From NCBI GenBank assembly GCA_046596255.1, contig JBKJMZ010000013.1:263-64262 (forward strand): 64,000 bases of DNA, written 5' to 3'. Both the position numbers and the translations under genes were made by a program. The notes below the pieces were generated by a model. That model ran no database searches and was not told the origin of the DNA. It saw only the letters and a list, made by a program, of their open reading frames with translations. The DNA comes from Ferruginibacter sp. (lineage in GTDB: Bacteria > Bacteroidota > Bacteroidia > Chitinophagales > Chitinophagaceae). Positions 122-25,580 of this stretch are shown in pieces. Each line of letters opens with the position of its first letter. Within the stretch, counting starts at the first letter, position 1.

Positions 122-3100
122 ATGCTAATCCAACTGTGTAAGAAACCGATTTTCTTTATTACCCTGTTATTATGCGGCGTAGATGCCGAAGCCCAGGAGC
201 CAAAACTTATCCTGCCTTTTAGCCCGGGCATTGTTTCTAACATGAAATTTTCTCCTGACGGGAAAAGAATATTAACCCAGGCTGATAATAAAAAAGGCAC
301 ACTTACATCTCCTTTATTATGGAACACCCAAACTGGGAAGCTCTTAGCGGTTTTATCGGGTCATACAGGGGAAGTGCGGGAAGCAATATTTTCTCCCGAC
401 AGCAAAAAAATTATAAGCTATTCTTTTATTGATGACAATCGAGTTAGGTTATGGGATGCCATATCAGGCAGGGTTCTTTATATATTAGGTAAGCATGAAG
501 TTTCCATTGATGCCGCTGCTTTTTCACCCGATTCAAAGAAAGTGGCAATTATCATTTCTGATACCATCCAGGTATGGGATACAGAAACAGGCCAGTTGAT
601 AAATAGCATCGATGAATTCGGCGGACTTCTTTCTACATGCACGATAAGCTTTTCGCCCGATGGAAAAAAATTATTAACCACTACTAAAGACAGTATCGCA
701 CAGGTATGGGATGTAGAAACTGGAAAAGACATAGTTACATTGAGCGGGCAGGGACATGTAATTAGTTCCGCTTCATTTTCTCCTGATGGCCTGCAGGTTT
801 TAACCATATCTGAAGATACGGTAATAAGAGTATTGAATGCACAATCCGGGAAGGTTTTACACAGGCTTGGCGGATACAAGGGAGGCATAAAATTTGCCCG
901 GTTTTCGCCCGATGGAAAAAAAATATACTCGGCAACTATTGTTACACCTTTTATGCCTGTTAAACATATAAAAATTTGGTCCGCAGAAATGGGTATATTG
1001 CTGCTGAATAAAAAAATAGAAAGCTCCACTTCACCTGTATTTGCCATTTCAAACGATGGCACAAAAATCGTTACAGGGTTTACTGACCAGGAAAATAAAA
1101 TCATTTTACAGGATATTGAATCGGAAAAAGTAGTCGGGGAATTTAATAATTCTGCCGAGATATCTTCTGTAACCCTTTCGACAGATAATAAAAAGATAGC
1201 AACAGGATCATGGGATGAGAATGTACATATATGGAACCTTGAGACAGGGTCTCTTATAACAACCCTTAACGGTCATACATTGGAAGCTGGGAGCGCCCTT
1301 CAGTCGGCCGATGGCGAAAGGATCATAAGCCAGCGTGATTGGGAAGCTGTGCAGATATGGAACAGGCGAACAGGGGCTTTATTGAGTACTATTTATGATG
1401 CTAATTTCATTGAAGGTTCAGATGTTTTATCCCCTGATGGAAAAAGATTGATCTTAAAGATCATTGAGAACCCCTCTAAAAAACCCAAACCTTTTACACC
1501 CGGAACAACATCAATTGAAGTTCATTCTCTATTCACAAAATTAATGCGGGGCAACGCTGAACTTTGGGAACCGGATAGTGCAAAGTTCATAGGCTTTTTG
1601 GGCCAGGGTAAGGAAACAGTGAGGGCCCGTTTTTCGGCAGATAGTAAATTATTGTTTACTACAAATGAAGATGGAGTTACAACCATCAGGAATGGGCTAA
1701 CAGGCGATTCCCTTTTTTCAATTAAACAGGATAGAGAAAATGCAGCAGTAAATTTTTCTCCTGACAGCAAAAAGATCGCAGCATCGGTTGATAAGATCAT
1801 AAAGGTTTTTAATTGCACTTCGGGTGCCTTATTATTCACGTTTAAAGACCATAAGGAAGCGGTTCAACAGGTGGTATTTACTCCTGATGGGAAAAAACTG
1901 GTGACATCATCCCGGGATGCAATTAAAATATGGGATGCTGCTTCGGGACTTTTACAAAAATCGCTGATACATGGAGAAGAAGGGAATCCAAAAATTCAGA
2001 TTTCCCCTAACAGTAAACTGATGTCTGTACGAAGTGAGGACAAACTCGATATTTGGGATCTTGATGGAGGCGAACAGATTACCCATATGAAGGATGACTA
2101 TCCCTCCGTTTTGCATGAGGATAATAAAATGCTTGTGTTTAGTCCTGATGAGAAGCTATTCGCTTTTCTTGCTGAGGATAATTCAGTTTTAGTGTTTGAG
2201 ACACATTTCGGACTGGAGAAAGTCAGGCTCCCTGGTCACCCCGAACCTATATCTTCCATAATATTTTCTAAGGATTCCAAAAGCATAGCTGTCGTTTTTC
2301 CGAATTTTATTGAGGTTTGGAATGCTGAAACAGGGGAGCGAATTGATCCGGTGTCACAGCCCGAACCCATTCAATTCTTTGATAATAATTTCTATAACAG
2401 TAAAAGGGTGAGTTTGAATAACGGGCTTGTAGTTGTGTCTGACTTGGAGACCGGGAAACAGATCTATTCTTTTGTGGGAGTTGATAGTACAGAATTTTTT
2501 TACCAACTCCCTTCGGGTTATTATTATATTTCTTCGCCACAGGTTGCAAAGATGTTGCATTATGTTACACCCGACCAGCGCGTGATAGGTTTTGAGCAAT
2601 TGGATGTAAAGTTCAACCGCCCCGACCTTATTCTGCCGGTAATTGGTTCAACTGACACGGCCCTGATCGACTCTTACAGAAAAGCCTATGAAAAAAGGAT
2701 AAAAAAACTCCGTATTGATACAGCTTCATTTAGTGTCGGCTTTGGATTGCCCGAAGCCGATTTTTCGGATAGGGCAAAAATCGTGTTTGAACAAAGGGAA
2801 AATAAATTATCGCTGAATATAAAGGGGAAAGACGCTGTGTATGAACTTGACCGTTTTAACCTTTGGATAAATGAAGTGCCTTTATTTGGCCAGCGGGGCA
2901 TAAGCTTAAAAAATAAAATGAAGAAAGTTTTTGATACGACAATTACAGTGATCTTATCGGGTGGAAATAATCAACTGGAGACCTCCATATCCAATGTGAA
3001 CGGTACAGAAAGTTACCGGGTCCCACTGACTGTAAATTATATACCGGAGGTAAAACCAAAAGAGCAAATATATTTTATCGGAATCGGCATTGACCAGTTT

Positions 3101-3847
3101 GTTCAAAGCAAATACAACCTTAAGTACAGCACAAAGGATATCCGCGACCTTGCAAACAAATTAAAAGAAAAGTATACGGGCATCATCATTGATACTTTGT
3201 TCAATGAAAATGTAACTATTAGCAATGTAAAAGCCTTAAAACAAAAACTGCTACAAACCAATGTCAATGATAAAGTGATCATTTCTTATTCCGGCCATGG
3301 TATGCTGAGTAAGGATTTTGATTACTATCTTTCAACCTATGGGGTGAACTTTGATAAACCCGAAGAAAACGGCCTGCCTTACGATGAACTGGAAAGTTTA
3401 CTGGATAGTATCCCTGCCCGAAAAAAACTAATGCTTATTGATGCTTGTCATAGCGGTGAAGTGGATAAGGACGATTTAGTTGCCCTTAATGCAACAGATA
3501 CAAAATTGATCAAAGGACTTAAACCCGTTGCTTACAAAAAAGAAGGCCAGTTAGGGTTAAAGAACAGCTTTGAACTGATGCAAAGCCTTTTTGTGAATGT
3601 AGGCAAGAGCACCGGGGCAACTATCATCTCAGCAGCTGCAGGTACCCAGTTTGCACTGGAAGGAGTAGACAATCTTCCCAATGGGGTTTTTACCTACAGC
3701 ATTTTGGAAGCCATGAATAAATATCCAACAATGAAGATCAGTGAACTGAAAAAGATCGTGGGGGATCGGGTGGTAGAGATCACCAAGGGTTTACAAAAAC
3801 CTACCAGCAGGAATGAAACCATTGCGGTGGATTGGGAAATATGGTAA
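122..3847 (+). CDS. Exported WD40-repeat / caspase-like (peptidase C14) fusion protein, paralog 1
   Basis: 1241-aa ORF. N-terminal signal peptide (..LLLCGVDAEA|QEP). Repeated WD40-type blades (GH..V...FSPDGK....D.t...WD..tG). Linker shared by all four paralogs (YYY..., FEQLDVKFNRPD, SYRKAYEKRIKKL). The C-terminal caspase fold starts at YFIGIGIDQF (nt 3071), with His in ISYSGHGM (codon 3296-3298) and Cys in LIDACHSGE (codon 3446-3448). Confidence 0.85.
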   Translation: MLIQLCKKPIFFITLLLCGVDAEAQEPKLILPFSPGIVSNMKFSPDGKRILTQADNKKGTLTSPLLWNTQTGKLLAVLSGHTGEVREAIFSPDSKKIISYSFIDDNRVRLWDAISGRVLYILGKHEVSIDAAAFSPDSKKVAIIISDTIQVWDTETGQLINSIDEFGGLLSTCTISFSPDGKKLLTTTKDSIAQVWDVETGKDIVTLSGQGHVISSASFSPDGLQVLTISEDTVIRVLNAQSGKVLHRLGGYKGGIKFARFSPDGKKIYSATIVTPFMPVKHIKIWSAEMGILLLNKKIESSTSPVFAISNDGTKIVTGFTDQENKIILQDIESEKVVGEFNNSAEISSVTLSTDNKKIATGSWDENVHIWNLETGSLITTLNGHTLEAGSALQSADGERIISQRDWEAVQIWNRRTGALLSTIYDANFIEGSDVLSPDGKRLILKIIENPSKKPKPFTPGTTSIEVHSLFTKLMRGNAELWEPDSAKFIGFLGQGKETVRARFSADSKLLFTTNEDGVTTIRNGLTGDSLFSIKQDRENAAVNFSPDSKKIAASVDKIIKVFNCTSGALLFTFKDHKEAVQQVVFTPDGKKLVTSSRDAIKIWDAASGLLQKSLIHGEEGNPKIQISPNSKLMSVRSEDKLDIWDLDGGEQITHMKDDYPSVLHEDNKMLVFSPDEKLFAFLAEDNSVLVFETHFGLEKVRLPGHPEPISSIIFSKDSKSIAVVFPNFIEVWNAETGERIDPVSQPEPIQFFDNNFYNSKRVSLNNGLVVVSDLETGKQIYSFVGVDSTEFFYQLPSGYYYISSPQVAKMLHYVTPDQRVIGFEQLDVKFNRPDLILPVIGSTDTALIDSYRKAYEKRIKKLRIDTASFSVGFGLPEADFSDRAKIVFEQRENKLSLNIKGKDAVYELDRFNLWINEVPLFGQRGISLKNKMKKVFDTTITVILSGGNNQLETSISNVNGTESYRVPLTVNYIPEVKPKEQIYFIGIGIDQFVQSKYNLKYSTKDIRDLANKLKEKYTGIIIDTLFNENVTISNVKALKQKLLQTNVNDKVIISYSGHGMLSKDFDYYLSTYGVNFDKPEENGLPYDELESLLDSIPARKKLMLIDACHSGEVDKDDLVALNATDTKLIKGLKPVAYKKEGQLGLKNSFELMQSLFVNVGKSTGATIISAAAGTQFALEGVDNLPNGVFTYSILEAMNKYPTMKISELKKIVGDRVVEITKGLQKPTSRNETIAVDWEIW

Positions 3848-3962
3848 AGAAAGCAGAAAATCCAAATTCGAATTGAGCGGCACAAAAGATAAGTTGAATG
3901 AACTTGCTGCTGCGGTGGCGGAGAAGTCGGCGGTGATGGTAAAGTAAGTTTTAAAAAACGCT

Positions 3963-6900
3963 ATGAGCAAAATATTACTGGTTATCTTTTGTTTTGCTAC
4001 AACAATGGTTTGGGGGCAACAGGCCAAATTAATGTTGCCCGTTGGGCATACGAAAGCAGTGCTTGCGGTTGACTTCAGTATAGATAGTAAAATGTTGGTT
4101 TCAGGATCGGATGATAATACTGCAAAGCTATGGGATGTTGCCAGCGGTAAAGAATTATTATCTTTTGCAGGGCATACAGATCGGGTGGTCTCAGTAAAAT
4201 TCTTCAACAATGACCTGTATTTAATTTCCGGCTCGGAAGATAATACTGTTAAGATCTGGAATTGCAAAACAGGTAAATTAGTTTTTGATCTGAAAGGACA
4301 TACAGGTAGAATTAATGCAGTTAATTTAAGTCCTGATGAAAAGTTGGTAATAACTGCTTCAGACGACAGAACTGCAAAGATCTGGGACATTGAAACCGGC
4401 ATATTATTACATACTTTAACCAGTCATCAATGGGCTGTTAAGAAGGCAATTTTTGATCTAACTGCAACAAAAGCCATTACAGTTTCTGAAGATAACATGG
4501 CAGTAATTTGGGAAGTAGCTACCGGAAAAATTTTAAAACAACTTACACATCACCGGGGAGCCCTTAGTGATGTTTGCCAAATACCCGGTACTAACCTTAT
4601 CATAACAGCATCCATAGATCACTCGGCTGCTGTTGTGAATATTGAAAGCGGCAAAGTAATTCAAGAATTTACCGGGCATACAAATGATGTTACAAAAGTT
4701 ATTGCCGCCAATAGTGGAAAACTAGCATTCACAACATCAGTGGATAGTACAATAATATGTTGGGATATTAAAACTGGTAAATTAATGTATCGTAGCAGCC
4801 ATAATGCACAGATTTTAGATATAAGCATAAGCCCAGATGATAAATGGATTGCAACAGCTTCATCAGATAATTTAATAAGAATTTGGAATGCGGCATCAGG
4901 CAAAGAGCTTCATAAACTTATTGGCCATGAGGCTGGTGTAAGAGCCGTCTCATTCAATAAAAATTCGGCAATATTAGCTTCGGGCTCAAATGATAATCGC
5001 ATAAAATTATGGAATACAAAGGAGGCGGAACTAATTAGAACTATAAGTACTCATACCGAGACCGTTATATTTATGGCATATTCCGAAGACAGTGTATATT
5101 ATCTTACCACTGCCAATGATGATCAAAAAAATTCTATCTGGAATAAAGCTAAATCAATAATAATAGCTATTGTTGAAACTGCTACAGGTAAAGAAATATC
5201 AAGGAAGATTTTCAGCGTTGATAGTATTTCTAATGAATTTGATGCAATTGTGTATAGCATGGATGGTAAATTTTATATTACAAAGGATACCAAAGGTAAT
5301 TTGAGCATCCATGATGCGTTTTCAACCCAGCATGTTCGAACCATTAAAAATTCCGGTAATACAATTATAGATCCTGCGTTTTTCGAAAGTTCCGGAAAGG
5401 TTATATCGGTCTATGATAAGCATTATATTAAGGTTTGGGATATAAAGGATTCACTTAAAGATGAAGTCTTAATTAAGGAGAAGTTGCAGATTACGCGGTT
5501 CAAATATTTTCATAATGCTCGTGAGTTATACTACTTAACAAAGTTGAATGAGCTTGTAAATTTTAATTGCAGGATAAAAAAAATAAAATCAAGGATAAAG
5601 CTTTTCCCAGCTGGTAAAATTACTTTTTTTGCAAAAGAAGAACAGGTTGCTGTTTACATGGCAGATAAAAAAGCATTATTTATTGAAGGCAATTCGGGAA
5701 CACTACGAAAATATATTCTACAGATCAAGGGAGAGGCGGAAGAGCCAAAGATCGTTGAAAACAGGAAGGCAATAATGTTTTTTGAGAATAAGGAATATGC
5801 CAGGATTTATGATATTAAAACCGGCAGGTTAAAACTGCAGTTTAAAGTTTGGGATCAATTAGGATATATTGGATTTGTAAACAGCAGTGGTGATAAATTT
5901 TATCATTCACAGGAAGATAATTCAATAGCAGAGCGGAATTTAGTAAATGGAAAAGCAGAACGAAAATTTATAAAACATCAAAACTGGCTTACACACATCG
6001 CTCCATACCCGCTTAAAAACATGATGATTTCCTATGGCTGGGATAACCAGTCTGTTATATGGGATAAAGAAAAAGCTTTGCCGGTTTGCTACAGGTTACA
6101 ATTGAAAGATAATAACTGGATAAATTATCTACCAACAGGTTACTATTACGCCACGCCCGACGCATCAAAGCTTCTTTATTATGTAACCAGAGATTTAAAA
6201 ATAATAAGCTTTGATCAATTGGATGTAAAGTATAACCGTCCCGACAAAGTGCTGCAAGCACTTGGCAATACAGACACTTCATTAATAAATTCTTACCGTA
6301 GGGCTTATGAAAAAAGAATTAAGAAACTGGGGATTGATACTACTACATTTATGGATGGTTTCGGTGTTCCGGAAAGCAATCTTGCAAACCGGGAGCAGTT
6401 GGAATTTGAGCTGACAAATGAATTGCTGGATTTACAAATTAAACTTTTTGATAGTACCTACAAACTTGACCGGTTTAATGTTTGGTTAAATGAAGTGCCC
6501 GTTTTTGGACAGCGGGGAGTAAATATCAGAAAGAATAATACACGACAACTGGACACCGCAATCAGGGTACAACTATCGCAGGGATACAACCTTTTAGAAA
6601 CCACCGTATATAATGTGAACGGTACCGAAAGCTACCGCATGCCCTTGCAGGTAAATTATACGCCTGCCAATAAACAGTCAGAAAGAACATATTTCATAGG
6701 TATTGGCATTGATCAGTTCGTTGACAGTAAGTACAATTTAAAGTACAGCACAAAAGATATCCGTGATCTCATCAAAAAACTAAAAGAAAAATATAATGAC
6801 ATTATCATAGATACCTTATTCAATGAAGATGTAACCATCAATAAGGTAAAAGTATTAAAACAAAAACTGCTGCAAACTACAGTAAATGATAAAGTCATTA

Positions 6901-7466
6901 TTTCTTACTCCGGCCACGGCATGTTAAGCAAAGATTTTGATTATTTCCTTTCAACCTATGCAGTAAATTTTGATAAGCCTGAAGAGAATGGCCTGCCTTA
7001 CGATGAGCTGGAAAGTCTGTTAGACAGTATTCCTGCCCGTAAAAAATTAATGCTCATTGATGCCTGCCATAGCGGTGAAGTAGACAAGGATTACCTGGTT
7101 GCCCTAAATGCCACGGATAAAAAATTGATCAAAGGACTTAAACCCGTTGCTTACAAAAAAGAAGGCCAGCTGGGATTAAAAAATAGCTTTGAACTGATGC
7201 AAAGCCTTTTTGTGAATGTAGGCAAAAGCACCGGCGCCACCATCATCTCAGCCGCAGCGGGTACCCAGTTTGCGCTGGAAGGAGTGGATAATCTTCCCAA
7301 TGGTGTATTTACATACTGCATACTTGAGGCAATGAATAAATATCCAACAATGAAGATCAGTGAACTAAAGAAGATCGTTGGAGAGAGAGTGGTAGAGATC
7401 ACAAAAGGATTACAAAGGCCAACCAGCAGGAATGAAACGATAGCGGTGGATTGGGAAGTATGGTAA
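3963..7466 (+). CDS. Exported WD40-repeat / caspase-like (peptidase C14) fusion protein, paralog 2
   Basis: 1167-aa ORF. Signal peptide (..TTMVWG|QQA). Very canonical WD40 blades at the N-terminus (GHTKAVLAVDFS..SGSDDNTAKLWDVASG, GHTDRVVSVKF..SGSEDNTVKIWNCKTG, GHTGRINAVNLSPD..ASDDRTAKIWDIETG). Same linker (FDQLDVKYNRPD, SYRRAYEKRIKKL). Caspase module from nt 6690, with His codon 6915-6917 (SYSGHGM) and Cys codon 7065-7067 (DACHSGE). Confidence 0.9.
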   Translation: MSKILLVIFCFATTMVWGQQAKLMLPVGHTKAVLAVDFSIDSKMLVSGSDDNTAKLWDVASGKELLSFAGHTDRVVSVKFFNNDLYLISGSEDNTVKIWNCKTGKLVFDLKGHTGRINAVNLSPDEKLVITASDDRTAKIWDIETGILLHTLTSHQWAVKKAIFDLTATKAITVSEDNMAVIWEVATGKILKQLTHHRGALSDVCQIPGTNLIITASIDHSAAVVNIESGKVIQEFTGHTNDVTKVIAANSGKLAFTTSVDSTIICWDIKTGKLMYRSSHNAQILDISISPDDKWIATASSDNLIRIWNAASGKELHKLIGHEAGVRAVSFNKNSAILASGSNDNRIKLWNTKEAELIRTISTHTETVIFMAYSEDSVYYLTTANDDQKNSIWNKAKSIIIAIVETATGKEISRKIFSVDSISNEFDAIVYSMDGKFYITKDTKGNLSIHDAFSTQHVRTIKNSGNTIIDPAFFESSGKVISVYDKHYIKVWDIKDSLKDEVLIKEKLQITRFKYFHNARELYYLTKLNELVNFNCRIKKIKSRIKLFPAGKITFFAKEEQVAVYMADKKALFIEGNSGTLRKYILQIKGEAEEPKIVENRKAIMFFENKEYARIYDIKTGRLKLQFKVWDQLGYIGFVNSSGDKFYHSQEDNSIAERNLVNGKAERKFIKHQNWLTHIAPYPLKNMMISYGWDNQSVIWDKEKALPVCYRLQLKDNNWINYLPTGYYYATPDASKLLYYVTRDLKIISFDQLDVKYNRPDKVLQALGNTDTSLINSYRRAYEKRIKKLGIDTTTFMDGFGVPESNLANREQLEFELTNELLDLQIKLFDSTYKLDRFNVWLNEVPVFGQRGVNIRKNNTRQLDTAIRVQLSQGYNLLETTVYNVNGTESYRMPLQVNYTPANKQSERTYFIGIGIDQFVDSKYNLKYSTKDIRDLIKKLKEKYNDIIIDTLFNEDVTINKVKVLKQKLLQTTVNDKVIISYSGHGMLSKDFDYFLSTYAVNFDKPEENGLPYDELESLLDSIPARKKLMLIDACHSGEVDKDYLVALNATDKKLIKGLKPVAYKKEGQLGLKNSFELMQSLFVNVGKSTGATIISAAAGTQFALEGVDNLPNGVFTYCILEAMNKYPTMKISELKKIVGERVVEITKGLQRPTSRNETIAVDWEVW

Positions 7467-7585
7467 CACTAACAAAATTATTTATAGTAGTATTTAAATT
7501 ACAGTTCCCTGGCATCGTTGAAAAATACCATCTTTTGGTATTACAGATCATAACAAAACACAGTACCTTTTACAAAAATTAGGTT

Positions 7586-11230: not shown

Positions 11231-11332
11231 TAGCTTTTCATATAAGCATTCTATACATTGTTTTTTGCGGATAAGAATGAAGGAACTATTTTTAGATACT
11301 AAAATCATTGTTTACCAAAACTTCATCATACT

Positions 11333-12850: not shown

Positions 12851-12921
12851 TCACTATTTATCGTTTAGAACCTAATTTCTCCAAGGGTAAAAACCGGTAA
12901 TGATTAAAAAAATCCCTGGCT

Positions 12922-15900
12922 ATGCATAAAAATACCTTTCGCATTGGAATACTCCTGTTTTGTATATTCCTGGCAGAGATAAGCCCCGCGCAGGATATAA
13001 GGATCGTGCCAAAAGAGAGGTCTTTCCTTTATTTATTAGGAATGAGCGTGAGCCCTTCAGGTTCATACATTGCATCCCGTCTTTTGGAGTCGAAGCAGGT
13101 TTCCATTTTTGAATCGTTTTCGGGAAAAGAAATAAAACGTATAGACCTTGGCACACGGCCCGAGAAGTTTTATTTTTTGAATGATGAATACCTTCTGGTT
13201 ATTTTTAATTTCAATATTGTAATCATTGACACAAGGGATAAGACCACTGTAGCAGAATGGAAATCAGATGACAGGATATTTAACGTTGACTTTAATTTGA
13301 AGAACAAGGTATTGGCAATTTCAACCTTATACAATACTGCTACAATAAGCTGCACAGGCAGCAGGTTCAATATTCTTGCCTCCATCCCTTCAAAAAAGAG
13401 TGACATTTTATCCATTTCTGAGAATGGGCTTGTGCTTGCAGGCCTACAGGAAAATAAGATCGTTTGCTGGAACGTAAATGATCTCCAGGTTAAGGGAAGC
13501 ATAGATACTGCGGGTATCCATTCTTTTGAAGCAGTTTCATCCGGAATCATTGCTATAAAAAAAGACCCATTCAGTTATGCGTATTATAATTTCGACGGAA
13601 CACTGCGATCTGGATCTGGCTATAAAGAAATAAGAAATGTGTCCCCAGCCTATTTCACACACCTGCATTCCACTGAAGGTGGATTTTTTGTGGAGGCATA
13701 CAAAAAGATCGTATTTATTGATAACGAAGGTTACCAAACCATCTTAAAAACGGCTGACCAGTATAAAGAGATGCAGTATAATGAGGCTACAGGTAAATTT
13801 ATAACCTTAGGCTTCGATAATATCACGGTGATGGACATTGAAGGTGCTGTATATGCAAAGACTGCCCTGGATGATGTTTTGCCTGTTGATATGTATTATG
13901 ATACCACGTTAGAAAAAAATATGATCGCACTGGATAGCCAGGTTGTATTTGCCGAAAGCGGGAAAGAGGTGCGGAAATTTATGTTGAAGGGGAATTATGT
14001 AACCAAGGCAATTGAAAAAGATAACTGGCTGATCGTGCCGCTGGCAGATGGACGCATTTCGATCTGGGATATAAAAAAAGAAAAGCTACTGTATGATATT
14101 AAGCATGGCCAGATCCCTTACCTCGTAGTACCGGATCACAAGAATAACTGCCTTTACACCTCGGTATTCCAGGATAGTGCTGTTTACCGGGTAGACCTGG
14201 CAAAGGACACCAAACAATTGATCTATAAAGACAATGCACCCATAACAGCACTTGCCATAAAAAATGACCAGGTATTTATTGGAAATACCAGGGGCGAAGT
14301 AAAAGCCACACTGCTACAGGGAAACAGCCTGCTCGTTAAACACAGGGCCAGCCTGTTTGGTAATGGGATATCTAAAATAACTATTGCCGGCGATAAGTTA
14401 ATGATCGGCTCTTACGGCCGCATGGGGTATATAAAAACTGATCTCAGTGATTCTGTGAACACGCCATTATTTGTCGGGCATAATGGATTGATAAAGGATA
14501 TTGTGATCTCTGCCGACAAGCGTTTCTTTATTTCAAGCGCACAGGATAAGACCATTAAACTGTGGGACCTCGAAAAAAACAGGCTTGTACAGTCCTACGA
14601 TCTTGATTCTGTGGATGCCGATCGATTACAGTTAGTAGGCAACACGGAGTTCTTATTTTATGGCGCTGGATTTTTAATGGGCGCTGTTACAGATAGTGTA
14701 TCAGTAAATGCATTCATGAATCCCGGCAATGAGATCGTGGTGCAATCTCCCAATAATAATTCACCCTTAAAGATGGCCATTAATAAGGAAGGTACCCTGC
14801 TGGCTGCTGTTGATAATAATACGGTAAAAGTACGGGACCTAAAGAGTGGCTTTTTGATCAGTGAATTTTCAACCCAAAATAAAACGGTGAACGGGATAAC
14901 TTTTACAACCGATGGTAAAATGATCGCTGTTGCAGCAGGAGATGCTGTGGAATGTTTTGATCCCTTAACTGGTAAACTCATCCGGCAGATCGTACTGGAT
15001 AAAAGAGGCAGGTCGGTGCATGATGTGGAGGCTTATAATAATGCTATCGTAGCTATAAACAGTCATGGATGGCACAACCCGTTGATATTTCATAAGAATT
15101 CGGGGCTTAAGCTGGGAGAGATATGGTATAATGCAGGTGAACAAATGGACAAGCGAATTATGGATTTTAAATGTACGTCCAATGGGTCACTGCTTATTAC
15201 TTATGGTACCGACTTTATAAAAGTTTTTGAGAATCCACAAAAACCAAAGCTCATTTTAACCATTCCCCTCGCAGCACAGGGTAAAACCAATGAAAATTAT
15301 ATTGATTTCATGAACATCAGCCCCGATGAAAAATATTTACTGTATGATGATTTCACTGATGTTTCCACTTTGAAGATTGTGGAGATAGCAGGTGGTAAGT
15401 TATTAAAGCAACACAATGGTGGCATCGGGGCTTTTGGTAAAGATGGTAGATACATTTATGTGGCGGGCAGAAACCGGGTAGGATTCAGAAATATTCTTAC
15501 TGATTCTGTGCGTATCCTGGATTTTACCTGCGATGGCGATATCAATAATATTGTATACAACGATAAAGCCGACATTTTTGCTGTGAGTGATACCTGGGGT
15601 AATATAAAAATACTCGAAGGCCGATCGGGCAGTATCATTTCAGAGAACAGCCGCTGGGATCAGTACACTTATAATTCAATACTCTCTCCCGATGGCTGGT
15701 ATATGGTCTTCAATAACCGCTCTGGTTTATATACAATCGATCTTAATACGCTTAAGAGAGAAAAGATACCGGCAGAAAATTTTCCTTTATCAGGTGTGTT
15801 TTCTCCAGCATCCGACAAATTATACTTTAGAAATAAAAATACCTTTTATGCAAAGGAACTTGCCACCGGGAATATAGATACCATCTTTACAACATCCGTA

Positions 15901-18012
15901 AAAGAAAAAAATATCCAGTATATGGATATTTCTGCGGACGGAAAGATACTCTGGTTCGGCACTGCCAATGATGATATTATTTTTATTGATATTGAAACCC
16001 GCAGACAATTCTGGAGTATGAATAAATTCCGGGTGAAAGATTGGGACGGCTTTGTATTAAGAGATATGGTTTACAGGGATGGCAAATACCAATTACTGGG
16101 TGTGGGCATTAAAACCTATGGTAAAGAAAGTGGTTTCACATACATAACAGTCGAAGCAAATGATAATATGATCTCTATAAAAAGATCACCCGAGAAAAAA
16201 TTATTAAGAGAGGGAAAAGGCTTTGAACGTAAAGTGTTTGAAAGGGATGGGAAAATATTTGATATATCGCCCGATGGAAAATATTTCTGTTTTATGAAAG
16301 AACTGGAGCTGTATATCGTTGATCTCAAGTCAGGCGATACTGTTTTTAATCGTGATAACCCGATATCAGGAAGTATACAATCAGGTTTTTTTACAGCAGA
16401 TCAAAAGTTTTTCATAGTAGGGCTGGATGATGGCTATACGGAGATCTATGACTTGGGCAGGAAGGGTAAAAGTTACAAATATGGTAACGAGGCCAAAGGC
16501 TTATTGAGGCTGAAACGCTTCAGGGCCAATGAAAGTGGAGTTTCATATATGCAGGTAGCAGGCAACAGGTTACTGGTTAAAGGCAATAACGCTTTTATTT
16601 CATTGTTTGATATGAATAGTGAATTCAATAAGGAGCTGGATATGGATTTTATTAAAGATGCCGACCAGGTATTCATCAATCCGGAGGGATATTATTATTC
16701 AACCAAGAACGCACTTAATTATATAGCTTTTAAAAGAGACGTTTCCATTTATCCATTTGAGCAGCTGGATATAAAATATAATCGCCCGGATAAAGTGCTT
16801 GAATCTGTTCACAGTAAAGATGCCTCCCTGATCGGCTCTTACAAAATGGCTTATTTAAAAAGGATCAAAAGAATGAATATTCACGAAGCCAGTAACCTTG
16901 ATGTAAGCAATATTCCCCAGGCTGATTTTGCAAACAGGCTCAGCATCCCTTTTGACCAGACTACAGGACAGTTAAAGCTGAACGTAAAGGGAGGAGATAA
17001 TAAGTATGCTTTGGACCGGGTGAATATCTGGATTAATGATGTTCCCTTATGGGGAATGAAAGGGCTAAGCCTTCAAAACCGCAAGAGGAGCTTATATGAT
17101 ACAACCATCATGATTAATTTAACAAAAGGAAGGAACAAGATCGAGGTAGCGCTGACCAACAGCAACGGTGCAGAAAGTTTCAAAACACCATTAATGGTAA
17201 ATTATTCGCCGGTCAATACTATAAATGAAAAGGTCTATTTCATTGGTATAGGTATTGATGAGTTCGCAGACAATAAATACAATCTTAAATACAGCGCCAA
17301 GGATATCAGGGACCTTGCTGAAAAGTTCAGTGAGCAATATGGCAATTTAGTGATCATCGATACGCTTATAAATGAAAATGTAACTGTCAGCAATATAAAA
17401 GCATTAAAGAAAAAGCTGCTGCAAACAACAGTAAATGATAAGGTAATAATTTCATACTCGGGTCATGGCATGCTGAGCACCGACTTTGATTATTATCTTT
17501 CTACCTATGCTGTAAATTTTGACAAACCCGAAGAGAATGGCTTGTCGTATGATGCACTGGAAGACCTTGTTGATAATATTCCAGCCCGTAAGAAACTCCT
17601 GTTGATAGATGCCTGTCACAGTGGTGAGGTAGATAAGGATGACCTGGAGAGGCTTAATGCTACCCCCGACAGTTTAATAAAAGGGCTTAAGCCCGTGGGT
17701 TTTAAAAAGAACGGGCAGTTGGGTTTGAAGAACAGTTTTGAATTGATGCAGACCCTGTTTGTAAATGTGGGCAAGAGTACTGGTGCTACGATCATTTCAG
17801 CAGCAGCGGGTACCCAGTTTGCGCTGGAGAGTAATAATTTAAAAAACGGCATTTTTACTTACAGCATACTGGAAGCGATGAATGCCAATAGCTCGATGAA
17901 AATCAGCGAACTTAAAAAAATTGTAGGTGAGCGGGTGGAACAATTGACGAAAGGATTACAGAAACCTACCTCAAGAAGCGAATCGATTGTTGTGGATTGG
18001 GAAGTTTGGTGA
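12922..18012 (+). CDS. Exported giant beta-propeller-repeat / caspase-like (peptidase C14) fusion protein, paralog 4
   Basis: 1696-aa ORF. Signal peptide (..LAEISPA|QDI). About 1250 aa of degenerate propeller-type repeats with a few recognisable WD40 blades (GHNGLIKDIVISADKRFFISSAQDKTIKLWDLEKN). Shared linker (FEQLDIKYNRPD, SYKMAYLKRIKRM). Caspase module from nt 17236 (YFIGIGIDEF ... SYSGHGM ... DACHSGE ... VDWEVW). Confidence 0.85.
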   Translation: MHKNTFRIGILLFCIFLAEISPAQDIRIVPKERSFLYLLGMSVSPSGSYIASRLLESKQVSIFESFSGKEIKRIDLGTRPEKFYFLNDEYLLVIFNFNIVIIDTRDKTTVAEWKSDDRIFNVDFNLKNKVLAISTLYNTATISCTGSRFNILASIPSKKSDILSISENGLVLAGLQENKIVCWNVNDLQVKGSIDTAGIHSFEAVSSGIIAIKKDPFSYAYYNFDGTLRSGSGYKEIRNVSPAYFTHLHSTEGGFFVEAYKKIVFIDNEGYQTILKTADQYKEMQYNEATGKFITLGFDNITVMDIEGAVYAKTALDDVLPVDMYYDTTLEKNMIALDSQVVFAESGKEVRKFMLKGNYVTKAIEKDNWLIVPLADGRISIWDIKKEKLLYDIKHGQIPYLVVPDHKNNCLYTSVFQDSAVYRVDLAKDTKQLIYKDNAPITALAIKNDQVFIGNTRGEVKATLLQGNSLLVKHRASLFGNGISKITIAGDKLMIGSYGRMGYIKTDLSDSVNTPLFVGHNGLIKDIVISADKRFFISSAQDKTIKLWDLEKNRLVQSYDLDSVDADRLQLVGNTEFLFYGAGFLMGAVTDSVSVNAFMNPGNEIVVQSPNNNSPLKMAINKEGTLLAAVDNNTVKVRDLKSGFLISEFSTQNKTVNGITFTTDGKMIAVAAGDAVECFDPLTGKLIRQIVLDKRGRSVHDVEAYNNAIVAINSHGWHNPLIFHKNSGLKLGEIWYNAGEQMDKRIMDFKCTSNGSLLITYGTDFIKVFENPQKPKLILTIPLAAQGKTNENYIDFMNISPDEKYLLYDDFTDVSTLKIVEIAGGKLLKQHNGGIGAFGKDGRYIYVAGRNRVGFRNILTDSVRILDFTCDGDINNIVYNDKADIFAVSDTWGNIKILEGRSGSIISENSRWDQYTYNSILSPDGWYMVFNNRSGLYTIDLNTLKREKIPAENFPLSGVFSPASDKLYFRNKNTFYAKELATGNIDTIFTTSVKEKNIQYMDISADGKILWFGTANDDIIFIDIETRRQFWSMNKFRVKDWDGFVLRDMVYRDGKYQLLGVGIKTYGKESGFTYITVEANDNMISIKRSPEKKLLREGKGFERKVFERDGKIFDISPDGKYFCFMKELELYIVDLKSGDTVFNRDNPISGSIQSGFFTADQKFFIVGLDDGYTEIYDLGRKGKSYKYGNEAKGLLRLKRFRANESGVSYMQVAGNRLLVKGNNAFISLFDMNSEFNKELDMDFIKDADQVFINPEGYYYSTKNALNYIAFKRDVSIYPFEQLDIKYNRPDKVLESVHSKDASLIGSYKMAYLKRIKRMNIHEASNLDVSNIPQADFANRLSIPFDQTTGQLKLNVKGGDNKYALDRVNIWINDVPLWGMKGLSLQNRKRSLYDTTIMINLTKGRNKIEVALTNSNGAESFKTPLMVNYSPVNTINEKVYFIGIGIDEFADNKYNLKYSAKDIRDLAEKFSEQYGNLVIIDTLINENVTVSNIKALKKKLLQTTVNDKVIISYSGHGMLSTDFDYYLSTYAVNFDKPEENGLSYDALEDLVDNIPARKKLLLIDACHSGEVDKDDLERLNATPDSLIKGLKPVGFKKNGQLGLKNSFELMQTLFVNVGKSTGATIISAAAGTQFALESNNLKNGIFTYSILEAMNANSSMKISELKKIVGERVEQLTKGLQKPTSRSESIVVDWEVW

Positions 18013-19395
18013 TCAGTAATCAATTCCGAATAAAGAAAAACTTGCCCATTGTGAAGGCTTGGAAAATTTTTCCCTGGTGTCAAGCATGGCTAATCTTAAT
18101 GGTTCTGAAGGCATGAAGTAATGAGGGTCCTTAAGATGATGTACAAAACGGTTCATTAAATAAGCCGTGGCATTATCGTCAACGTTCCAAAGACTCATGA
18201 TCACATGGTCACTACCGCCCAACAGGAAACTACGTGCAAGGCCTGCTACACCAGCTTCCATTGATTTTCCCAGCCCGGTCTGACAGGCAGACAGGATCAC
18301 CATGGCCGGGAAATTATTTTTCAGGTAATTGCTGTCAGTTCGCAAAGCCATGATATTTTGGGCAGTTAAAAATGGATCTTTACCGCTCAATACCAGGAAA
18401 CTTTTTTCCATCGGCTTATCCTCATCCGCTATACCATGGGTTGCAAAATAAACTACATCTGCAGTTTTCATATACCTGATCACGCTGTCTTTAACAGCTT
18501 TGTTGCCTTCAAGTAATTTATAGGTTCCCGCGTATTTTATTGCAGTGTCAATTTCTTTTTTTGCCCCGGGCAGATCTGGGTAAACGAATTCCGTGCCTAC
18601 AGGATAAACCGGGTTGCTTATAAAAAGCGGGTTATTGAAAATAAAAGGACGTTTCACCAGTTCCCTGCCATCAAAGCCATATTCCGTAGCAGCTGTTTTC
18701 CTGATCACTTTTACTCTTAAACCAAGCAGGTCAAAAATACCGGGTACAACAGTTACACTGCAAAGATCAAGGAGCTGCAGTTCTTTTTGCCCAGGTTTGA
18801 GCAGGTAAAATGGAAAAGTGCCAATGTTCAGTGCAGGTATTATAAGTAGGTGCCTGTATTTTGCATTAAAGTTATCGGGTAATAATAATGAGGTGGCTCT
18901 TTTTATTACGTCATTATAAGTTATTCCTTTTGTTGCAGCCGCCCGGTTGATTTTAACTCCTCTTTTTACCGGCATCCTGTCTACTGATCCTGCATAGAGT
19001 TCCAGTACATGATTCATATCAATACTTAGCTGCAATAGTTCAGCCTTGCTGATCGTAAAAATTTTCTTCTCTATTACTTTACCCGGTTCAAAGAATACCC
19101 GCTGGAGGCGGCCCTGGTCAAAGAAGTAAAATAGAATACCAATGCCTTTATTTCTTGGGTAGATATTTCCCAGCATTTCAGCAAAACTTTCATCCGATGC
19201 AATATTCTGCGTATTGAATATTCTTGTCATTTCCTTTATCTCATCAGCAGGCATACCCCTTGTTGCCAGCAGGGATTCAACCTGTTTGCTATATATCCTG
19301 TATACATTTCCGGTATCACTCTTATTCAGTGTTACCTGAGCGAAACATAAAGACGGCAGTAAAAGAATAAGCAGGAATATTTTTTTATAAAACAT
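18013..19395 (-). CDS. Exported CHAT-domain (caspase-fold) protein
   Basis: The ORF runs to 19482, but the likely start is the ATG at 19395, which gives MFYKKIFLLILLLPSLCFA|QVT as a signal peptide. The C-terminal half has a CHAT-type His/Cys dyad context (VVYFATHGIAD ... MVILSACQTGLGK). It lies 91 bp downstream of the caspase gene on the same strand. Confidence 0.78.
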   Translation of the reverse strand: MFYKKIFLLILLLPSLCFAQVTLNKSDTGNVYRIYSKQVESLLATRGMPADEIKEMTRIFNTQNIASDESFAEMLGNIYPRNKGIGILFYFFDQGRLQRVFFEPGKVIEKKIFTISKAELLQLSIDMNHVLELYAGSVDRMPVKRGVKINRAAATKGITYNDVIKRATSLLLPDNFNAKYRHLLIIPALNIGTFPFYLLKPGQKELQLLDLCSVTVVPGIFDLLGLRVKVIRKTAATEYGFDGRELVKRPFIFNNPLFISNPVYPVGTEFVYPDLPGAKKEIDTAIKYAGTYKLLEGNKAVKDSVIRYMKTADVVYFATHGIADEDKPMEKSFLVLSGKDPFLTAQNIMALRTDSNYLKNNFPAMVILSACQTGLGKSMEAGVAGLARSFLLGGSDHVIMSLWNVDDNATAYLMNRFVHHLKDPHYFMPSEPLRLAMLDTREKFSKPSQWASFSLFGIDY

Positions 19396-19486
19396 AGATT
19401 GGGTTGAGGTAAGCGTTGTAATGTAAAAGCACTTTATTAAAAATAGCTTTAATAAAGGGCCTTCGGTATTTATTATTTCCAATAAT

Positions 19487-21724
19487 CTATTTTCTTGCCT
19501 TAACCGACAACCTGATCAGGCTCCAGTTTGAAACAGATTTGCCAAATCCCCGGGTACCTTCTTCATTACCCATATTCAACAGGTTTCCCAAAGGATTATT
19601 ACTTCCCCGGGCACCCGCCCTAACACCTTCCTGGTTAAATAGCATGGCATAATTTGAGATGGGTTCATCTGATGCAAGTATATAATAGTTATCCGTGCCT
19701 ATTGGTTCCTGTACATCACCGTCGAATAAGGTAACTCTTTTCACCAAACCCCCTGCCTCATACTTTGGAAATTGGTTTGTTTGATTACCATCCTCTGCTT
19801 CAGGAAAGCCTAATACCATATTACCATCCTTATCAATTACAAAAACATAGATATAGCGCTTTACCCTTACCGGGCCGGCACCTTCCTGGGCAACCAGGTT
19901 AAAAGATATTTTATCACCAAGCCTGTATCCTTCAGCGCCGATCGGTTGTTTGGTTGCTTTATTAACGATCTCCAGGTAAAAAGGAAACTGTTCATCTCCT
20001 TCCTTGGGTCCCGCTAATTGCTGCCAGCCACGGATCTTTGAAAGCCGCATCGTTAGCTCATATAGATCGTTTGCAATTGCTGTTGCGGATTGGGCACCAT
20101 CTTCCAGTAATATATTTTTTGTTTGCACAGGCATAGATTCCAGGCTGTCACGTGAAGCTGTTTGCGCCCTTCTTAAACCAAATGCCGGTTTGTTGTTATC
20201 ATTAATGGTTCCATATAAAACATAATGGGCATCGGCAGCAGACTTTGTTAAAACAATGCTGGGATTGGTCATTATCTTTTGTTTGATAGCTGCTACCAAT
20301 TCTTTTGATGGGGGCATCTCAAAATAAAAAGTAGAATCCTTTTTGCCTAAAGGCAAAAGGGATTCGGCAGTCAGTTTACCGGGTGCAGGCGCTTCTTTGC
20401 CATCTATATTCAGCCTGTAAGTATTACCATCATAATACAGGGTTGTATAGGGGTCATATTTTTCGAGGTTATTTACCCATTTTATTTTTGAGGATTGTTT
20501 AAGATCCTTATTGACCGCGGCGAGCCGTGCAATTTCTAAATAGGAAAAATTCCCTTCAGGAATAAACAACTTGATTAATGGCGCAGCGGAAGAGACCCAG
20601 TTGGTCACTTCCAGAAAATCTCCTGCCCTAAGATCTTTTATAGAACCTTTAATAATCCTGGCCATCGACCTGTTAACACTAAACACCGTATCAATACGCA
20701 GTTTAACAAGCGTGTCCTTATCATTAAATTTTACAAGTTCATTTTCCTGGTATAAGCCCAGTGCAAATCCACCCTGAAGCATTACCCGGTCACCCTTAAT
20801 GCCGGAAACGGCGATCTGGGCTTTATCAGAAATACTTCCTTTTTCCAGTCCGAACAATGTCTGCATTTGTCTTTCTGTGCTGCCTCCCAATACAGGCTCC
20901 TGTTTTTTGCCATTACTTTTTAAAATAGCCCGAAGACCTGTGAACAAATTAAATGCAGATGCATTCACCGACTGTTGTTCCAAAGCCTGTAATAAAGCAA
21001 TGGTGAAAGCTCCATGAGGTATTTGGTTTTCATCCAGCTGTTCCTGAGCAAATTCATTGTCCTGTGCTGCAGACATGATCAGGAAATCTGCATTCTTCCT
21101 TAATTCAGGTACAGGAGGTTGTGCTGCATCTTTAGCATCAAAATTACTTTCGGGGATAAAACGGAATTTAGCAGGGGTATTTGGCCCCCTGGATAATGAC
21201 CCACTATGACAGCAATCCATGATCACCGTTAGTTTTACGCCTTTGTCAATAAATTTGTTGTAGATAGCAGCAAGCTCCTTATCCCGGATATCTTCAACGC
21301 CTTCTTTATAGGTGTCACTCGGAACCATGGATTCGTCTTTTTTATCGGCTTCAACAGTTAAGCTGTTGCGTACCTGGCTTCCATGACCTGCATAGTACAT
21401 AAATGCAATATCATTCCGCTTGCTTTTATCAAGCAGCGCATTCATCTTTTTCAGGATGGCTTCCCGGCTTGCAGCCTTGTTATATAAGGTATCAACCCAT
21501 TCATTTTTAAACCTGAATTTAGATACGATCACAGAATGCATTGACATGGCATCATTCACGCAGCCATCAAGACTGTTAAAAGAAGCACGCTTACCGCTTG
21601 GCGGAACATAGCTTGCCGGTATGCTGTAATCATCTATACCAATAAGCAATGCTCTTTTTTCCTGGGCTGAAATGCTGTAAGCTGATAAGACAGTGATACA
21701 GAGAAAGATTATACTCTTTTTCAT
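19487..21724 (-). CDS. Exported caspase-family (peptidase C14) protein with large C-terminal extension (DUF4384-like end)
   Basis: 745-aa ORF. Signal peptide (..LSAYSISA|QEK). The caspase domain begins right after the cleavage site (RALLIGIDDY ... MYYAGHGSQ ... VIMDCCHSGS). The C-terminus has a segment resembling the DUF4384 module often fused to bacterial C14 peptidases (YRLGDKISFNL...YIYVFVIDKDGNMVLGFP...YYILASDEPI). Confidence 0.82.
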   Translation of the reverse strand: MKKSIIFLCITVLSAYSISAQEKRALLIGIDDYSIPASYVPPSGKRASFNSLDGCVNDAMSMHSVIVSKFRFKNEWVDTLYNKAASREAILKKMNALLDKSKRNDIAFMYYAGHGSQVRNSLTVEADKKDESMVPSDTYKEGVEDIRDKELAAIYNKFIDKGVKLTVIMDCCHSGSLSRGPNTPAKFRFIPESNFDAKDAAQPPVPELRKNADFLIMSAAQDNEFAQEQLDENQIPHGAFTIALLQALEQQSVNASAFNLFTGLRAILKSNGKKQEPVLGGSTERQMQTLFGLEKGSISDKAQIAVSGIKGDRVMLQGGFALGLYQENELVKFNDKDTLVKLRIDTVFSVNRSMARIIKGSIKDLRAGDFLEVTNWVSSAAPLIKLFIPEGNFSYLEIARLAAVNKDLKQSSKIKWVNNLEKYDPYTTLYYDGNTYRLNIDGKEAPAPGKLTAESLLPLGKKDSTFYFEMPPSKELVAAIKQKIMTNPSIVLTKSAADAHYVLYGTINDNNKPAFGLRRAQTASRDSLESMPVQTKNILLEDGAQSATAIANDLYELTMRLSKIRGWQQLAGPKEGDEQFPFYLEIVNKATKQPIGAEGYRLGDKISFNLVAQEGAGPVRVKRYIYVFVIDKDGNMVLGFPEAEDGNQTNQFPKYEAGGLVKRVTLFDGDVQEPIGTDNYYILASDEPISNYAMLFNQEGVRAGARGSNNPLGNLLNMGNEEGTRGFGKSVSNWSLIRLSVKARK

Positions 21725-21774
21725 AAGCTGTGATTAATAGTTTGGCGGTAATATAGGGTTAATTTGAATAAGGC

Positions 21775-21839
21775 AACTCAGTGATAACACGTATTTATTT
21801 TCTGTCTAATTCAAAAGAACTCAGTGGTAACACGTATTT
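21775..21839. promoter_or_regulatory. Pair of 22-bp direct repeats in the divergent promoter region (candidate operator sites)
   Basis: AACTCAGTGATAACACGTATTT (21775-21796) and AACTCAGTGGTAACACGTATTT (21818-21839) match at 21 of 22 positions, with starts 43 bp apart. They lie between the caspase-CHAT operon (minus strand) and the small secreted protein gene (plus strand). Confidence 0.45.
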
Positions 21840-21937
21840 TTTCAGGAAGATAAAGAAAGATTTGTTTTATTCCAACAATGTTATCTATATTAGACCAAGA
21901 TATTTTTTTCATTACAAAATTTTTAAAATTAACTATT

Positions 21938-22330
21938 ATGAAGAAGTTTTTTTTCATTGCCCTATTGCTGGCATGCGTTTCATTTAGCTTCGAGTCTTAC
22001 GGACAGAAATCCCGGACAGATGTTGTTGCTACAAAAGTAGACAAGAACAGGGGTGGGTCCCAGTACACTTTACCTACTACAGATGTGGAAGCTCCAAAAC
22101 CCGACAAAACCCGTGGCCAATGCTGTCTTAATTTTGACAACTGGACTGGCTATACAGTTTACATTTGGGTAGATAATGTTTTCCAGGGAACTGTAAGTGC
22201 CTGGAAAGATGGTGGCATTTGTGTTGCTGACGGATGGACAAAATGGTATGCAAGAACTGCAGGCGGTACTTTTGAGTGGAATGGCGAAGGAAGTTGCTAT
22301 GGCAGCACTTATACCCTTAAGCTGAAGTAA
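21938..22330 (+). CDS. Small secreted Cys-containing protein, unknown function
   Basis: The ORF begins at 21878, but the ATG at 21938 gives a clean signal peptide (MKKFFFIALLLACVSFSFESYG|QKS). The mature part is ~105 aa, Trp/Gly-rich, with five Cys. A strong terminator follows. Confidence 0.6.
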   Translation: MKKFFFIALLLACVSFSFESYGQKSRTDVVATKVDKNRGGSQYTLPTTDVEAPKPDKTRGQCCLNFDNWTGYTVYIWVDNVFQGTVSAWKDGGICVADGWTKWYARTAGGTFEWNGEGSCYGSTYTLKLK

Positions 22331-24965: not shown

Positions 24966-25580
24966 CTAGCTATTCCAGTCTGTAGGCTTATTAAGGATAA
25001 AGCCATCAGATTTTTTTTGAATACTTAAATCAAGTTGGCTCTCCACCAATTTTTTTCTACCAATAATTAATGAACCTTTTGCTACAGCTGCAACAGTGCT
25101 GTTATGTCGCTTTGGGGGGAAAGCAACAAATACTCTTTTTAAAGAAAAATTTTCGTGTACTGCTTTTATAGGTGGCACTAAATCACTGTCTCCACTAATC
25201 AACATAGCCATTTCATATTTATTCTGGTATGCATCAAGTAACATATTTGTTGCAATGTTTACATCAGTCATTTTTTCATTGGCAGCCATCCAGATATGCC
25301 CGCACCTATGACATTCCAGTTTATTATTCTGGTATTGACCATATATAATTTTAACCCCTTCATTGTACTGGGCATCTAAATAAGTACTCTGTCTTTTTTG
25401 TTTATCAGGATTATTTGTAACCCTTGCTGTAAAATATTTTACGGCTAAAAGCTGTTGATTATTTTGTAACAAATTTTGAGCTAATGCCTTTACGTTTAAC
25501 CATCTGCAATAACTAAAACCAGCTTCCATCATACCAAAATACAGATTAAAACCATCAACATAAACGATAACCCTTTCCAT
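24966..25580 (-). CDS. NYN-domain (LabA-like, PIN-fold) protein
   Basis: 204 aa. Starts MERVIVYVDGFNLYFG and has ISGDSDLVPPIKAV, both typical NYN/LabA motifs. Confidence 0.75.
   Translation of the reverse strand: MERVIVYVDGFNLYFGMMEAGFSYCRWLNVKALAQNLLQNNQQLLAVKYFTARVTNNPDKQKRQSTYLDAQYNEGVKIIYGQYQNNKLECHRCGHIWMAANEKMTDVNIATNMLLDAYQNKYEMAMLISGDSDLVPPIKAVHENFSLKRVFVAFPPKRHNSTVAAVAKGSLIIGRKKLVESQLDLSIQKKSDGFILNKPTDWNS

Follow-up and report, generated by a model that had tools for sequence, protein, structure and literature searches.

We have identified an island of eight genes at positions 122-22330 of a 64,000-nucleotide stretch of DNA from Ferruginibacter sp. (assembly GCA_046596255.1, contig JBKJMZ010000013.1; the whole stretch is hereafter called the window). 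The island encodes seven proteases, most of them caspase-like, and one protein of 130 amino acids (aa), and all eight are predicted to be built for export. Bacterial caspase homologs are almost always read as cytoplasmic agents of programmed cell death, abortive infection or gasdermin activation. We consider it likely that the proteases of this island are instead exported by the Sec pathway, cleaved by signal peptidase I and retained as soluble proteins in the periplasm, where beta-propellers would guide the cutting by the four largest of them.

Four of the genes are WD40-caspase paralogs on a common strand, encoding proteins of 1241, 1167, 1214 and 1696 aa. WD40-type beta-propeller repeats fill about 950 N-terminal residues of these proteins (more in the 1696-aa one), and a caspase domain of family C14 occupies the last 250 or so. 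A domain search of the island proteins found no nucleoside triphosphatase (NTPase) or other signalling domain between the propellers and the caspase. An HtrA-like gene with Trypsin_2 and PDZ domains sits between the third and fourth paralogs, and a CHAT gene lies downstream of a caspase-DUF4384 gene on the minus strand, 91 bp apart. The eight genes are as follows, with the predicted cleavage site marked by a slash and the N-terminus given up to that site.

122..3847, plus strand: paralog A, 1241 aa; signal peptide (122-193, AEA/QEP; MLIQLCKKPIFFITLLLCGVDAEA then QEP, gene at 122), WD40 propellers, helical linker and beta-sandwich, C-terminal C14 caspase.
3963..7466, plus strand: paralog B, 1167 aa; signal peptide (3963-4016, VWG/QQA; MSKILLVIFCFATTMVWG then QQA, gene at 3963), propellers, linker, beta-sandwich, C14 caspase.
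7586..11230, plus strand: paralog C, 1214 aa; signal peptide (7586-7651, SKA/QQP; MPTKFLLILIIYTSFTGTYSKA then QQP, gene at 7586), propellers, C14 caspase (PF00656 E=3.9e-15).
11333..12850, plus strand: HtrA/DegP-like serine protease, 505 aa; signal peptide (11333-11392, AAA/QNS; MLKLISAFLLAVSFMFTAAA then QNS, gene at 11333), trypsin fold, PDZ, extra C-terminus (TIGR02037 E=4.8e-55).
12922..18012, plus strand: paralog E, 1696 aa; signal peptide (12922-12990, SPA/QDI; MHKNTFRIGILLFCIFLAEISPA then QDI, gene at 12922), longer propeller region, C14 caspase (PF00656 E=3.5e-17).
18013..19395, minus strand: CHAT-domain protease, 460 aa; signal peptide (19339-19395, CFA/QVT; MFYKKIFLLILLLPSLCFA then QVT, gene at 19395), N-terminal region of about 200 aa without a family, CHAT (PF12770 E=7e-42).
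19487..21724, minus strand: caspase-DUF4384 protein, 745 aa; signal peptide (21665-21724, ISA/QEK; MKKSIIFLCITVLSAYSISA then QEK, gene at 21724) directly before the C14 domain, middle region, DUF4384 (PF00656 E=3.6e-29).
21938..22330, plus strand: small exported protein, 130 aa, no family, divergent from the minus-strand pair; signal peptide (21938-22003, SYG/QKS; MKKFFFIALLLACVSFSFESYG then QKS, gene at 21938), linker, beta-sandwich.

All eight N-termini are of the Sec/signal peptidase I type: the n-region is basic, the h-region spans 11-17 uncharged, hydrophobic residues, and positions -3 and -1 hold small residues. These calls were made with a rule-based scan that had three requirements: no net negative charge in the n-region, 8 or more uncharged residues in the h-region with Kyte-Doolittle hydropathy averaging 1.7 or higher, and a small residue both at -3 and at -1. 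An earlier, sequence-only reading of this DNA had claimed a Sec signal peptide for every island protein and listed eight sites of the form small-x-small/Gln; the scan bears out the first claim, and all eight sites are present exactly as listed. The site chosen by the scan falls before Gln in seven of the eight proteins, and in the HtrA-like protein SPA/V, five residues downstream, is favoured with AAA/Q as an alternative. None of the eight n-regions contains a twin-arginine motif, and the lipobox [LVI][ASTVI][GAS]C was not found at the end of the h-region in any of the seven proteases. The signals do not appear to be products of miscalled start codons: the signal Met is the first in-frame ATG, GTG or TTG past the upstream stop in six of the eight genes. 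Earlier in-frame starts exist for the CHAT gene (TTG, 29 codons upstream) and the small-protein gene (ATG, 20 codons upstream), and the homologs of both proteins begin at the signal Met.

Conservation of the signal across protein families is the strongest argument against miscalled starts. For the WD40-caspase family, the 120 best homologs of more than 2000 were counted, mostly from Chitinophagaceae and Ferruginibacter metagenome-assembled genomes; a hydrophobic N-terminus was present in 102 of them and a small-x-small/Q ending in 97. The remaining homologs start at a Met within or just past the first propeller blade and look like shortened start calls or fragments. Signal sequences vary freely in this family and the residues after the site are conserved, with the consensus mature N-terminus QQPKLvLPiGH; in a 65-sequence alignment, the Gln at +1 (Q19 of paralog B) is an invariant column. 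The ortholog of paralog A, P0002, also retains its signal peptide. In the caspase-DUF4384 family, which extends to Mucilaginibacter, Flavobacterium and Bacteroidales, 112/120 homologs are signal-like and 109/120 have Gln after the site. Its conserved mature N-terminus, QEKRALLIGID, is the first strand of the caspase fold. CHAT homologs have a hydrophobic N-terminus in 99/120 cases and Gln after the site in 97/120; the exceptions, 20-50 residues shorter, are shorter start calls. Q20, H320 and C371 are at least 95% conserved in the CHAT alignment, and M1, K2 and Q23 at least 90% conserved among 50 aligned members of the small-protein family. An invariant Gln directly after a variable hydrophobic segment is best explained if that Gln becomes the new N-terminus, as predicted by the Q-rule, under which signal peptidase I substrates of Bacteroidota very often carry Gln at the new N-terminus (PMC5837995, PMC10653852).

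The Q-rule, which the sequence-only reading had cited as established knowledge, could be checked in the genome itself, a 3.67 Mb assembly of 211 contigs from which background statistics were drawn by crude calling of open reading frames (ORFs). The scan flags 35% of 3047 ORFs, and 12.8% are flagged with Gln at +1; the 35% is an upper bound, since alternative starts are tried and membrane proteins are picked up as well. Gln leads the +1 residues by a wide margin (390/1062), and therefore the Q-rule operates in this organism. A gene for glutaminyl cyclase was also found (PF05096 at C43:1227-1937, E=9.9e-80). In the window outside the island, 13 of 36 ORFs are flagged, eight of them with Gln, and housekeeping genes such as lysS are negative. 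The genome holds ten PF00656 genes and a single PF12770 gene, and all 11 of these clan-CD genes bear signals. Five of the C14 genes lie beyond the window on three other contigs (C89:83505-90907, C26:15117-20029 and C73:1-3659), all with signal peptides, in TPR-linked, WD40-linked and 451-aa forms; the C73 gene is truncated where its contig stops, and the genome may therefore hold more caspases than were counted. If the genes were independent, the probability of Gln after the site in all eight island proteins would be about 7e-8, and that of a signal in all 11 clan-CD genes, against the 35% background, about 9e-6; both figures overstate the significance because exported genes cluster.

The predicted catalytic residues of all seven proteases are intact. 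PF00656 scored above its gathering threshold in all five window caspase genes in a six-frame search, and all five domains contain the caspase dyad as SGHG or AGHG with DACHSG or DCCHSG (SGHG and DACHSG in paralog A). The CHAT protein has H320 and C371, and the HtrA-like protein has an H93/D127/S203 triad with a GNSGG motif. Its C-terminal region of about 150 aa, from about residue 360 to 505, had no family match. Metacaspase-type enzymes, characterised by SGHG and D-x-C-H-S-G, cut after Arg or Lys, and in metacaspase structures this basic P1 specificity is linked to an Asp two residues before the catalytic Cys. By analogy, the island caspases probably cut after Arg or Lys.

In an AlphaFold2 model of paralog B, residues 2-14 form a signal helix, residues 20-405 and 430-720 the two propeller regions, residues 730-790 a helical linker, residues 800-900 a beta-sandwich and residues 905-1167 the caspase domain. 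The last three parts form a C-terminal cassette of about 440 aa that is found in each of the four paralogs:

2800-3847: linker, beta-sandwich and caspase cassette of paralog A.
6400-7466: the same cassette in paralog B.
10170-11230: the same cassette in paralog C.
16950-18012: the same cassette in paralog E.

The cassette is far more conserved among the paralogs than the propellers are. The caspase parts of paralogs A, B and C share 92-100% amino-acid identity, whereas the propellers share 10-40% between paralogs, and 57% between orthologs whose cassettes share 74-88%. Recent gene conversion was considered as the main cause of the near-identical caspase parts and rejected, as their nucleotide identity is 82-90%; small conversion patches are possible. 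High amino-acid identity at this level of nucleotide identity points to strong purifying selection on old duplicates.

These observations can be combined into a proposed mechanism. The n/h/c signals of the precursors would be cut by signal peptidase I before Gln, and glutaminyl cyclase would then convert the new N-terminal Gln into pyroglutamate. The mature proteins would remain soluble in the periplasm. There, the fast-evolving WD40 propellers of the four large paralogs may recruit a protein ligand or substrate, and the constrained linker/beta-sandwich/caspase cassette would cut the recruited protein, probably after Arg or Lys. The HtrA-like, CHAT and caspase-DUF4384 proteases and the small, disulfide-containing beta-sandwich protein would share the compartment, and elsewhere a thioredoxin-like protein would be part of the set. 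The role of such a system could be surveillance of the envelope or of foreign proteins, envelope remodelling, or peptide supply.

Proteases of the HtrA/DegP family are classically periplasmic, and Cys is scarce in the mature island proteases: one has 3 among its 1217 residues, and the HtrA-like protein lacks Cys altogether. The HtrA-like member, the low Cys content and the Cys pair of the small protein fit an extracytoplasmic, oxidising compartment. The proposal that the enzymes act outside the cytoplasm was supported by every in-silico test run, the support comprising the conserved signals and +1 Gln, the glutaminyl cyclase, the HtrA-like member, the Cys pair of the small protein and, in other genomes, a signal-bearing thioredoxin-like neighbour.

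Where the proteins go after Sec export is a separate matter. Models of the C-terminal domain (CTD) that sorts cargo to the type IX secretion system (T9SS), type A (TIGR04183) and type B (TIGR04131), had no match in the island or at the other caspase loci. The same models match 66 other places in the genome (43 type A and 23 type B), so that the earlier statement that no T9SS sorting domain is evident stands. The reason given for it, that the C-terminus is the caspase domain itself, is correct for the four WD40 paralogs and fails for the others: CHAT is the last domain of the CHAT protein, DUF4384 followed by about 55 residues closes the 745-aa protein, and some 150 extra residues form the end of the HtrA-like protein. 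With no T9SS CTD, no clear lipobox and no twin-arginine motif, the periplasm is the default destination in a didermal bacterium.

Several points weigh against this interpretation. The periplasmic location is itself a default drawn from missing sorting signals, its main rival being vesicle release or some unrecognised way of crossing the outer membrane. The signal-peptide calls come from our own rule-based scan and not from a trained predictor. In the small protein, LLAC weakly resembles a lipobox (Pfam LPAM_1 E=0.17), although the homologs of this protein lack that Cys. The specificity for Arg or Lys is read from motifs alone. A sequence search of the caspase domain against solved structures gave no match at E<=0.01, and the AlphaFold2 model of paralog B is confident for the propellers but of low confidence for half of the caspase domain; the model was therefore not used to judge access to the active site.

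The main rival holds that, after Sec export, the proteins cross or attach to the outer membrane by some route that does not involve a recognisable T9SS CTD. They would then act on the outside of the cell, in vesicles or in the surrounding medium, for example to digest food proteins or to harm competitors or grazers. The wealth of T9SS cargo implies that a capacity for secretion exists, the adjacent DPP IV peptidase is exported as well, the family resembles ecological accessory genes in its patchy occurrence and tandem expansion, and the HtrA-like and 745-aa proteins have C-terminal regions without a family. We nevertheless regard this alternative as unlikely, as the CTD models match none of the 11 clan-CD genes nor the HtrA-like gene, the four large paralogs end in the caspase domain, and no clear lipobox is present.

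A further proposal accepts the periplasm and assigns an immune-like function, in which the propellers would sense foreign proteins entering the envelope, such as bacteriocins, injected effectors or phage parts, and the caspase cassette would start a proteolytic cascade. If this were true, the cascade would run through the CHAT, caspase-DUF4384 and HtrA-like proteases, the small protein, with its conserved K-x-R-G sites, would be a cleaved target or decoy, and the island would represent an extracytoplasmic, NTPase-free counterpart of cytosolic sensor-caspase systems. We hold this specific function to be quite doubtful.

The hydrophobic segments could also be uncleaved signal anchors that tether the proteases to the inner membrane, facing the periplasm. 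Many prokaryotic metacaspases were predicted in a 2012 survey to have one transmembrane helix at the N-terminus, which could not be distinguished there from a signal peptide (PMC3501461). However, the h-regions of the island proteins are short (11-17 residues) and lead into polar c-regions with small residues at -3 and -1, and the invariant or near-invariant Gln after the site is best explained as a new N-terminus, which makes anchoring improbable. Least credible, and in our judgement very nearly dismissible, is the view that the segments are untranslated or non-functional and the enzymes cytoplasmic, of the abortive-infection or gasdermin type: generic domain-level matches to PADLOC caspase and trypsin models and to the EACC1-associated caspase model, together with the alternative upstream starts of the CHAT and small-protein genes, can be cited for it, but the PADLOC and NCBIfam matches lie far under their cut-offs, the island lacks any effector partner such as an NTPase, gasdermin or EACC1, and the conserved mature N-termini (QQPKL... 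and QEKRALLIGID) lie upstream of any alternative downstream start.

The small protein belongs to a family of 108 cluster representatives of about 130-145 aa, with a few outliers. It was modelled as a seven-stranded beta-sandwich with a predicted local distance difference test score (pLDDT) of 89.6, bracketed by the nearly invariant Cys62 and Cys120. Its linker carries two conserved K-x-R-G motifs, which make it a candidate substrate, decoy or inhibitor; that it serves the proteases as substrate, as bait or decoy, or as inhibitor is speculation. A fold search returned weak, generic beta-sandwich matches only (the pVHL beta domain and the PepT1 extracellular domain, with template-modelling scores of about 0.4), and no inhibitor or toxin fold. 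Homologs of the small protein adjoin C14 genes in several genera, at the loci L002 (5587-5982), L004 (9343-9738) and L005 (14389-14817) and in genome G025. Two of these caspase neighbourhoods also contain a thioredoxin-like protein (Thioredoxin_7/DsbH-type, about 400 aa) with a signal peptide, at L004:5503-6690 and L005:9509-10711. Such a protein might serve to maintain the catalytic cysteines in reduced form in the periplasm. In the Ferruginibacter genome, the search for this partner beside the caspase loci yielded only a partial match on another contig, C28.

Arrays of the same kind recur in other genomes. Three to six signal-bearing WD40-caspase paralogs stand in tandem in other Chitinophagaceae assemblies, in one of which a small-protein homolog lies between the paralogs. 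Caspase-DUF4384 orthologs were also located in Mucilaginibacter limnophilus and in the genome of a Chitinophagaceae isolate; in both neighbourhoods there are additional C14 proteins, linked to TPR or WD40 repeats, together with the small protein and the thioredoxin-like protein, all signal-bearing. In Mucilaginibacter, a clear HtrA-like ortholog with the site SLA/QKAS is next to the caspases; its gene is cut at the end of the locus, so that its C-terminus is not seen. Among 61 genus representatives of the bacterial family, the constant cassette occurs in six, the small protein in two and caspase-DUF4384 in three, and the cassette is absent from a relative in the same genus. Where present, the parts tend to be neighbours, with the small protein beside the caspase-DUF4384 gene in G025 and caspase-DUF4384 beside a WD40-caspase in G044. 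Sparse presence, tandem arrays and co-location together mark the set as an accessory module that is patchy in occurrence and able to expand.

On its left the island reaches the contig end, and its right-hand neighbours are the following.

22697..24865, minus strand: flanking DPP IV / S9 peptidase with a signal peptide (SALA/QKKE).
24966-25580: NYN-domain gene, between the exported DPP IV gene and lysS, at the right-hand border of the exported-protease block.

The DPP IV peptidase is an exported neighbour, and whether it belongs to the island is uncertain. A mobile-element origin of the island gained no support on the side that could be inspected: composition is flat, and the ten flanking genes annotated to about 34 kb include no integrase or transposase, the left flank being the contig end.

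Among characterised proteins, the gingipains RgpA, RgpB and Kgp of Porphyromonas gingivalis (family C25, clan CD), which cleave after Arg or Lys, resemble the island proteins in their caspase-fold His/Cys and in a signal peptide followed by Gln. Gingipains are C25 enzymes with a pro-domain and a T9SS CTD that are delivered to the surface, whereas the island proteins are C14 enzymes with propellers and no CTD. Like the island proteins, gingipains are Sec-exported Q-rule substrates (PMC5837995). Prokaryotic caspase homologs of MEROPS family C14 that carry WD40 repeats share PF00656 and the SGHG / D-x-C-H-S-G dyad with the island, and no domain accompanies prokaryotic metacaspases more often than WD40 (PMC3501461). 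The WD40 architectures described are, however, cytosolic caspase-NACHT-WD40 proteins, in contrast to the order signal peptide, propellers, caspase seen here, without an NTPase and with the whole family predicted to be exported. The 505-aa protein is similar to HtrA, DegP and DegQ in its trypsin fold, H/D/S triad, PDZ domain and signal peptide, but it scores 187 bits against a TIGR02037 cut-off of 416, has one clear PDZ and is set in a caspase array.

A parallel in gene content exists with the NTP-dependent conflict systems (Kaur et al. 2020, PMC7159879), in which caspase, CHAT and trypsin folds are likewise clustered, combined with repeat domains, patchy and expanded. Those systems are cytoplasmic and NTPase-centred, whereas the island has no NTPase, and their description mentions neither "signal peptide" nor "secreted" (PMC7159879). 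Comparison with the defence systems of PADLOC and NCBIfam gave domain-level matches only, far below family cut-offs; the EACC1-associated caspase model NF047832, for example, scored 45-58 bits against a cut-off of 140. Domain searches of the island and its flank found no NTPase, gasdermin, EACC1, reverse transcriptase or other effector as a partner.

No description or experimental localisation of exported C14/WD40 or CHAT proteins was found in the literature searched. The export of bacterial caspase homologs is nonetheless less new than the sequence-only reading implied, the gingipains being one precedent. The 2012 survey is another: it found dozens of prokaryotic caspase homologs whose single N-terminal helices were "likely to be signal peptides", assigned 30 proteins to the extracellular class and counted 28 metacaspases in Haliscomenobacter hydrossis, a member of the Bacteroidota (PMC3501461). 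The argument that export speaks against the usual cytosolic models is fair for this lineage, although export of such enzymes is not unprecedented.

This case speaks against a blanket cytoplasmic reading of bacterial caspase homologs. The whole complement of 11 clan-CD proteases in one genome is predicted to be built for export, and the same prediction holds for their families in Chitinophagaceae, Sphingobacteriaceae and other Bacteroidota. An annotation of "cell death" or "defence" drawn from a C14 or CHAT match is therefore unsafe in this phylum. If the proteins are exported as predicted, WD40 propellers of the G-beta type would be periplasmic, and a cysteine protease would have to work in an oxidising compartment; the thioredoxin-like neighbour seen elsewhere hints at how. 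The recurring set of propeller-caspases, HtrA-like, CHAT and caspase-DUF4384 proteases and the small protein is well defined and found in cultivable species, which makes these predictions testable.

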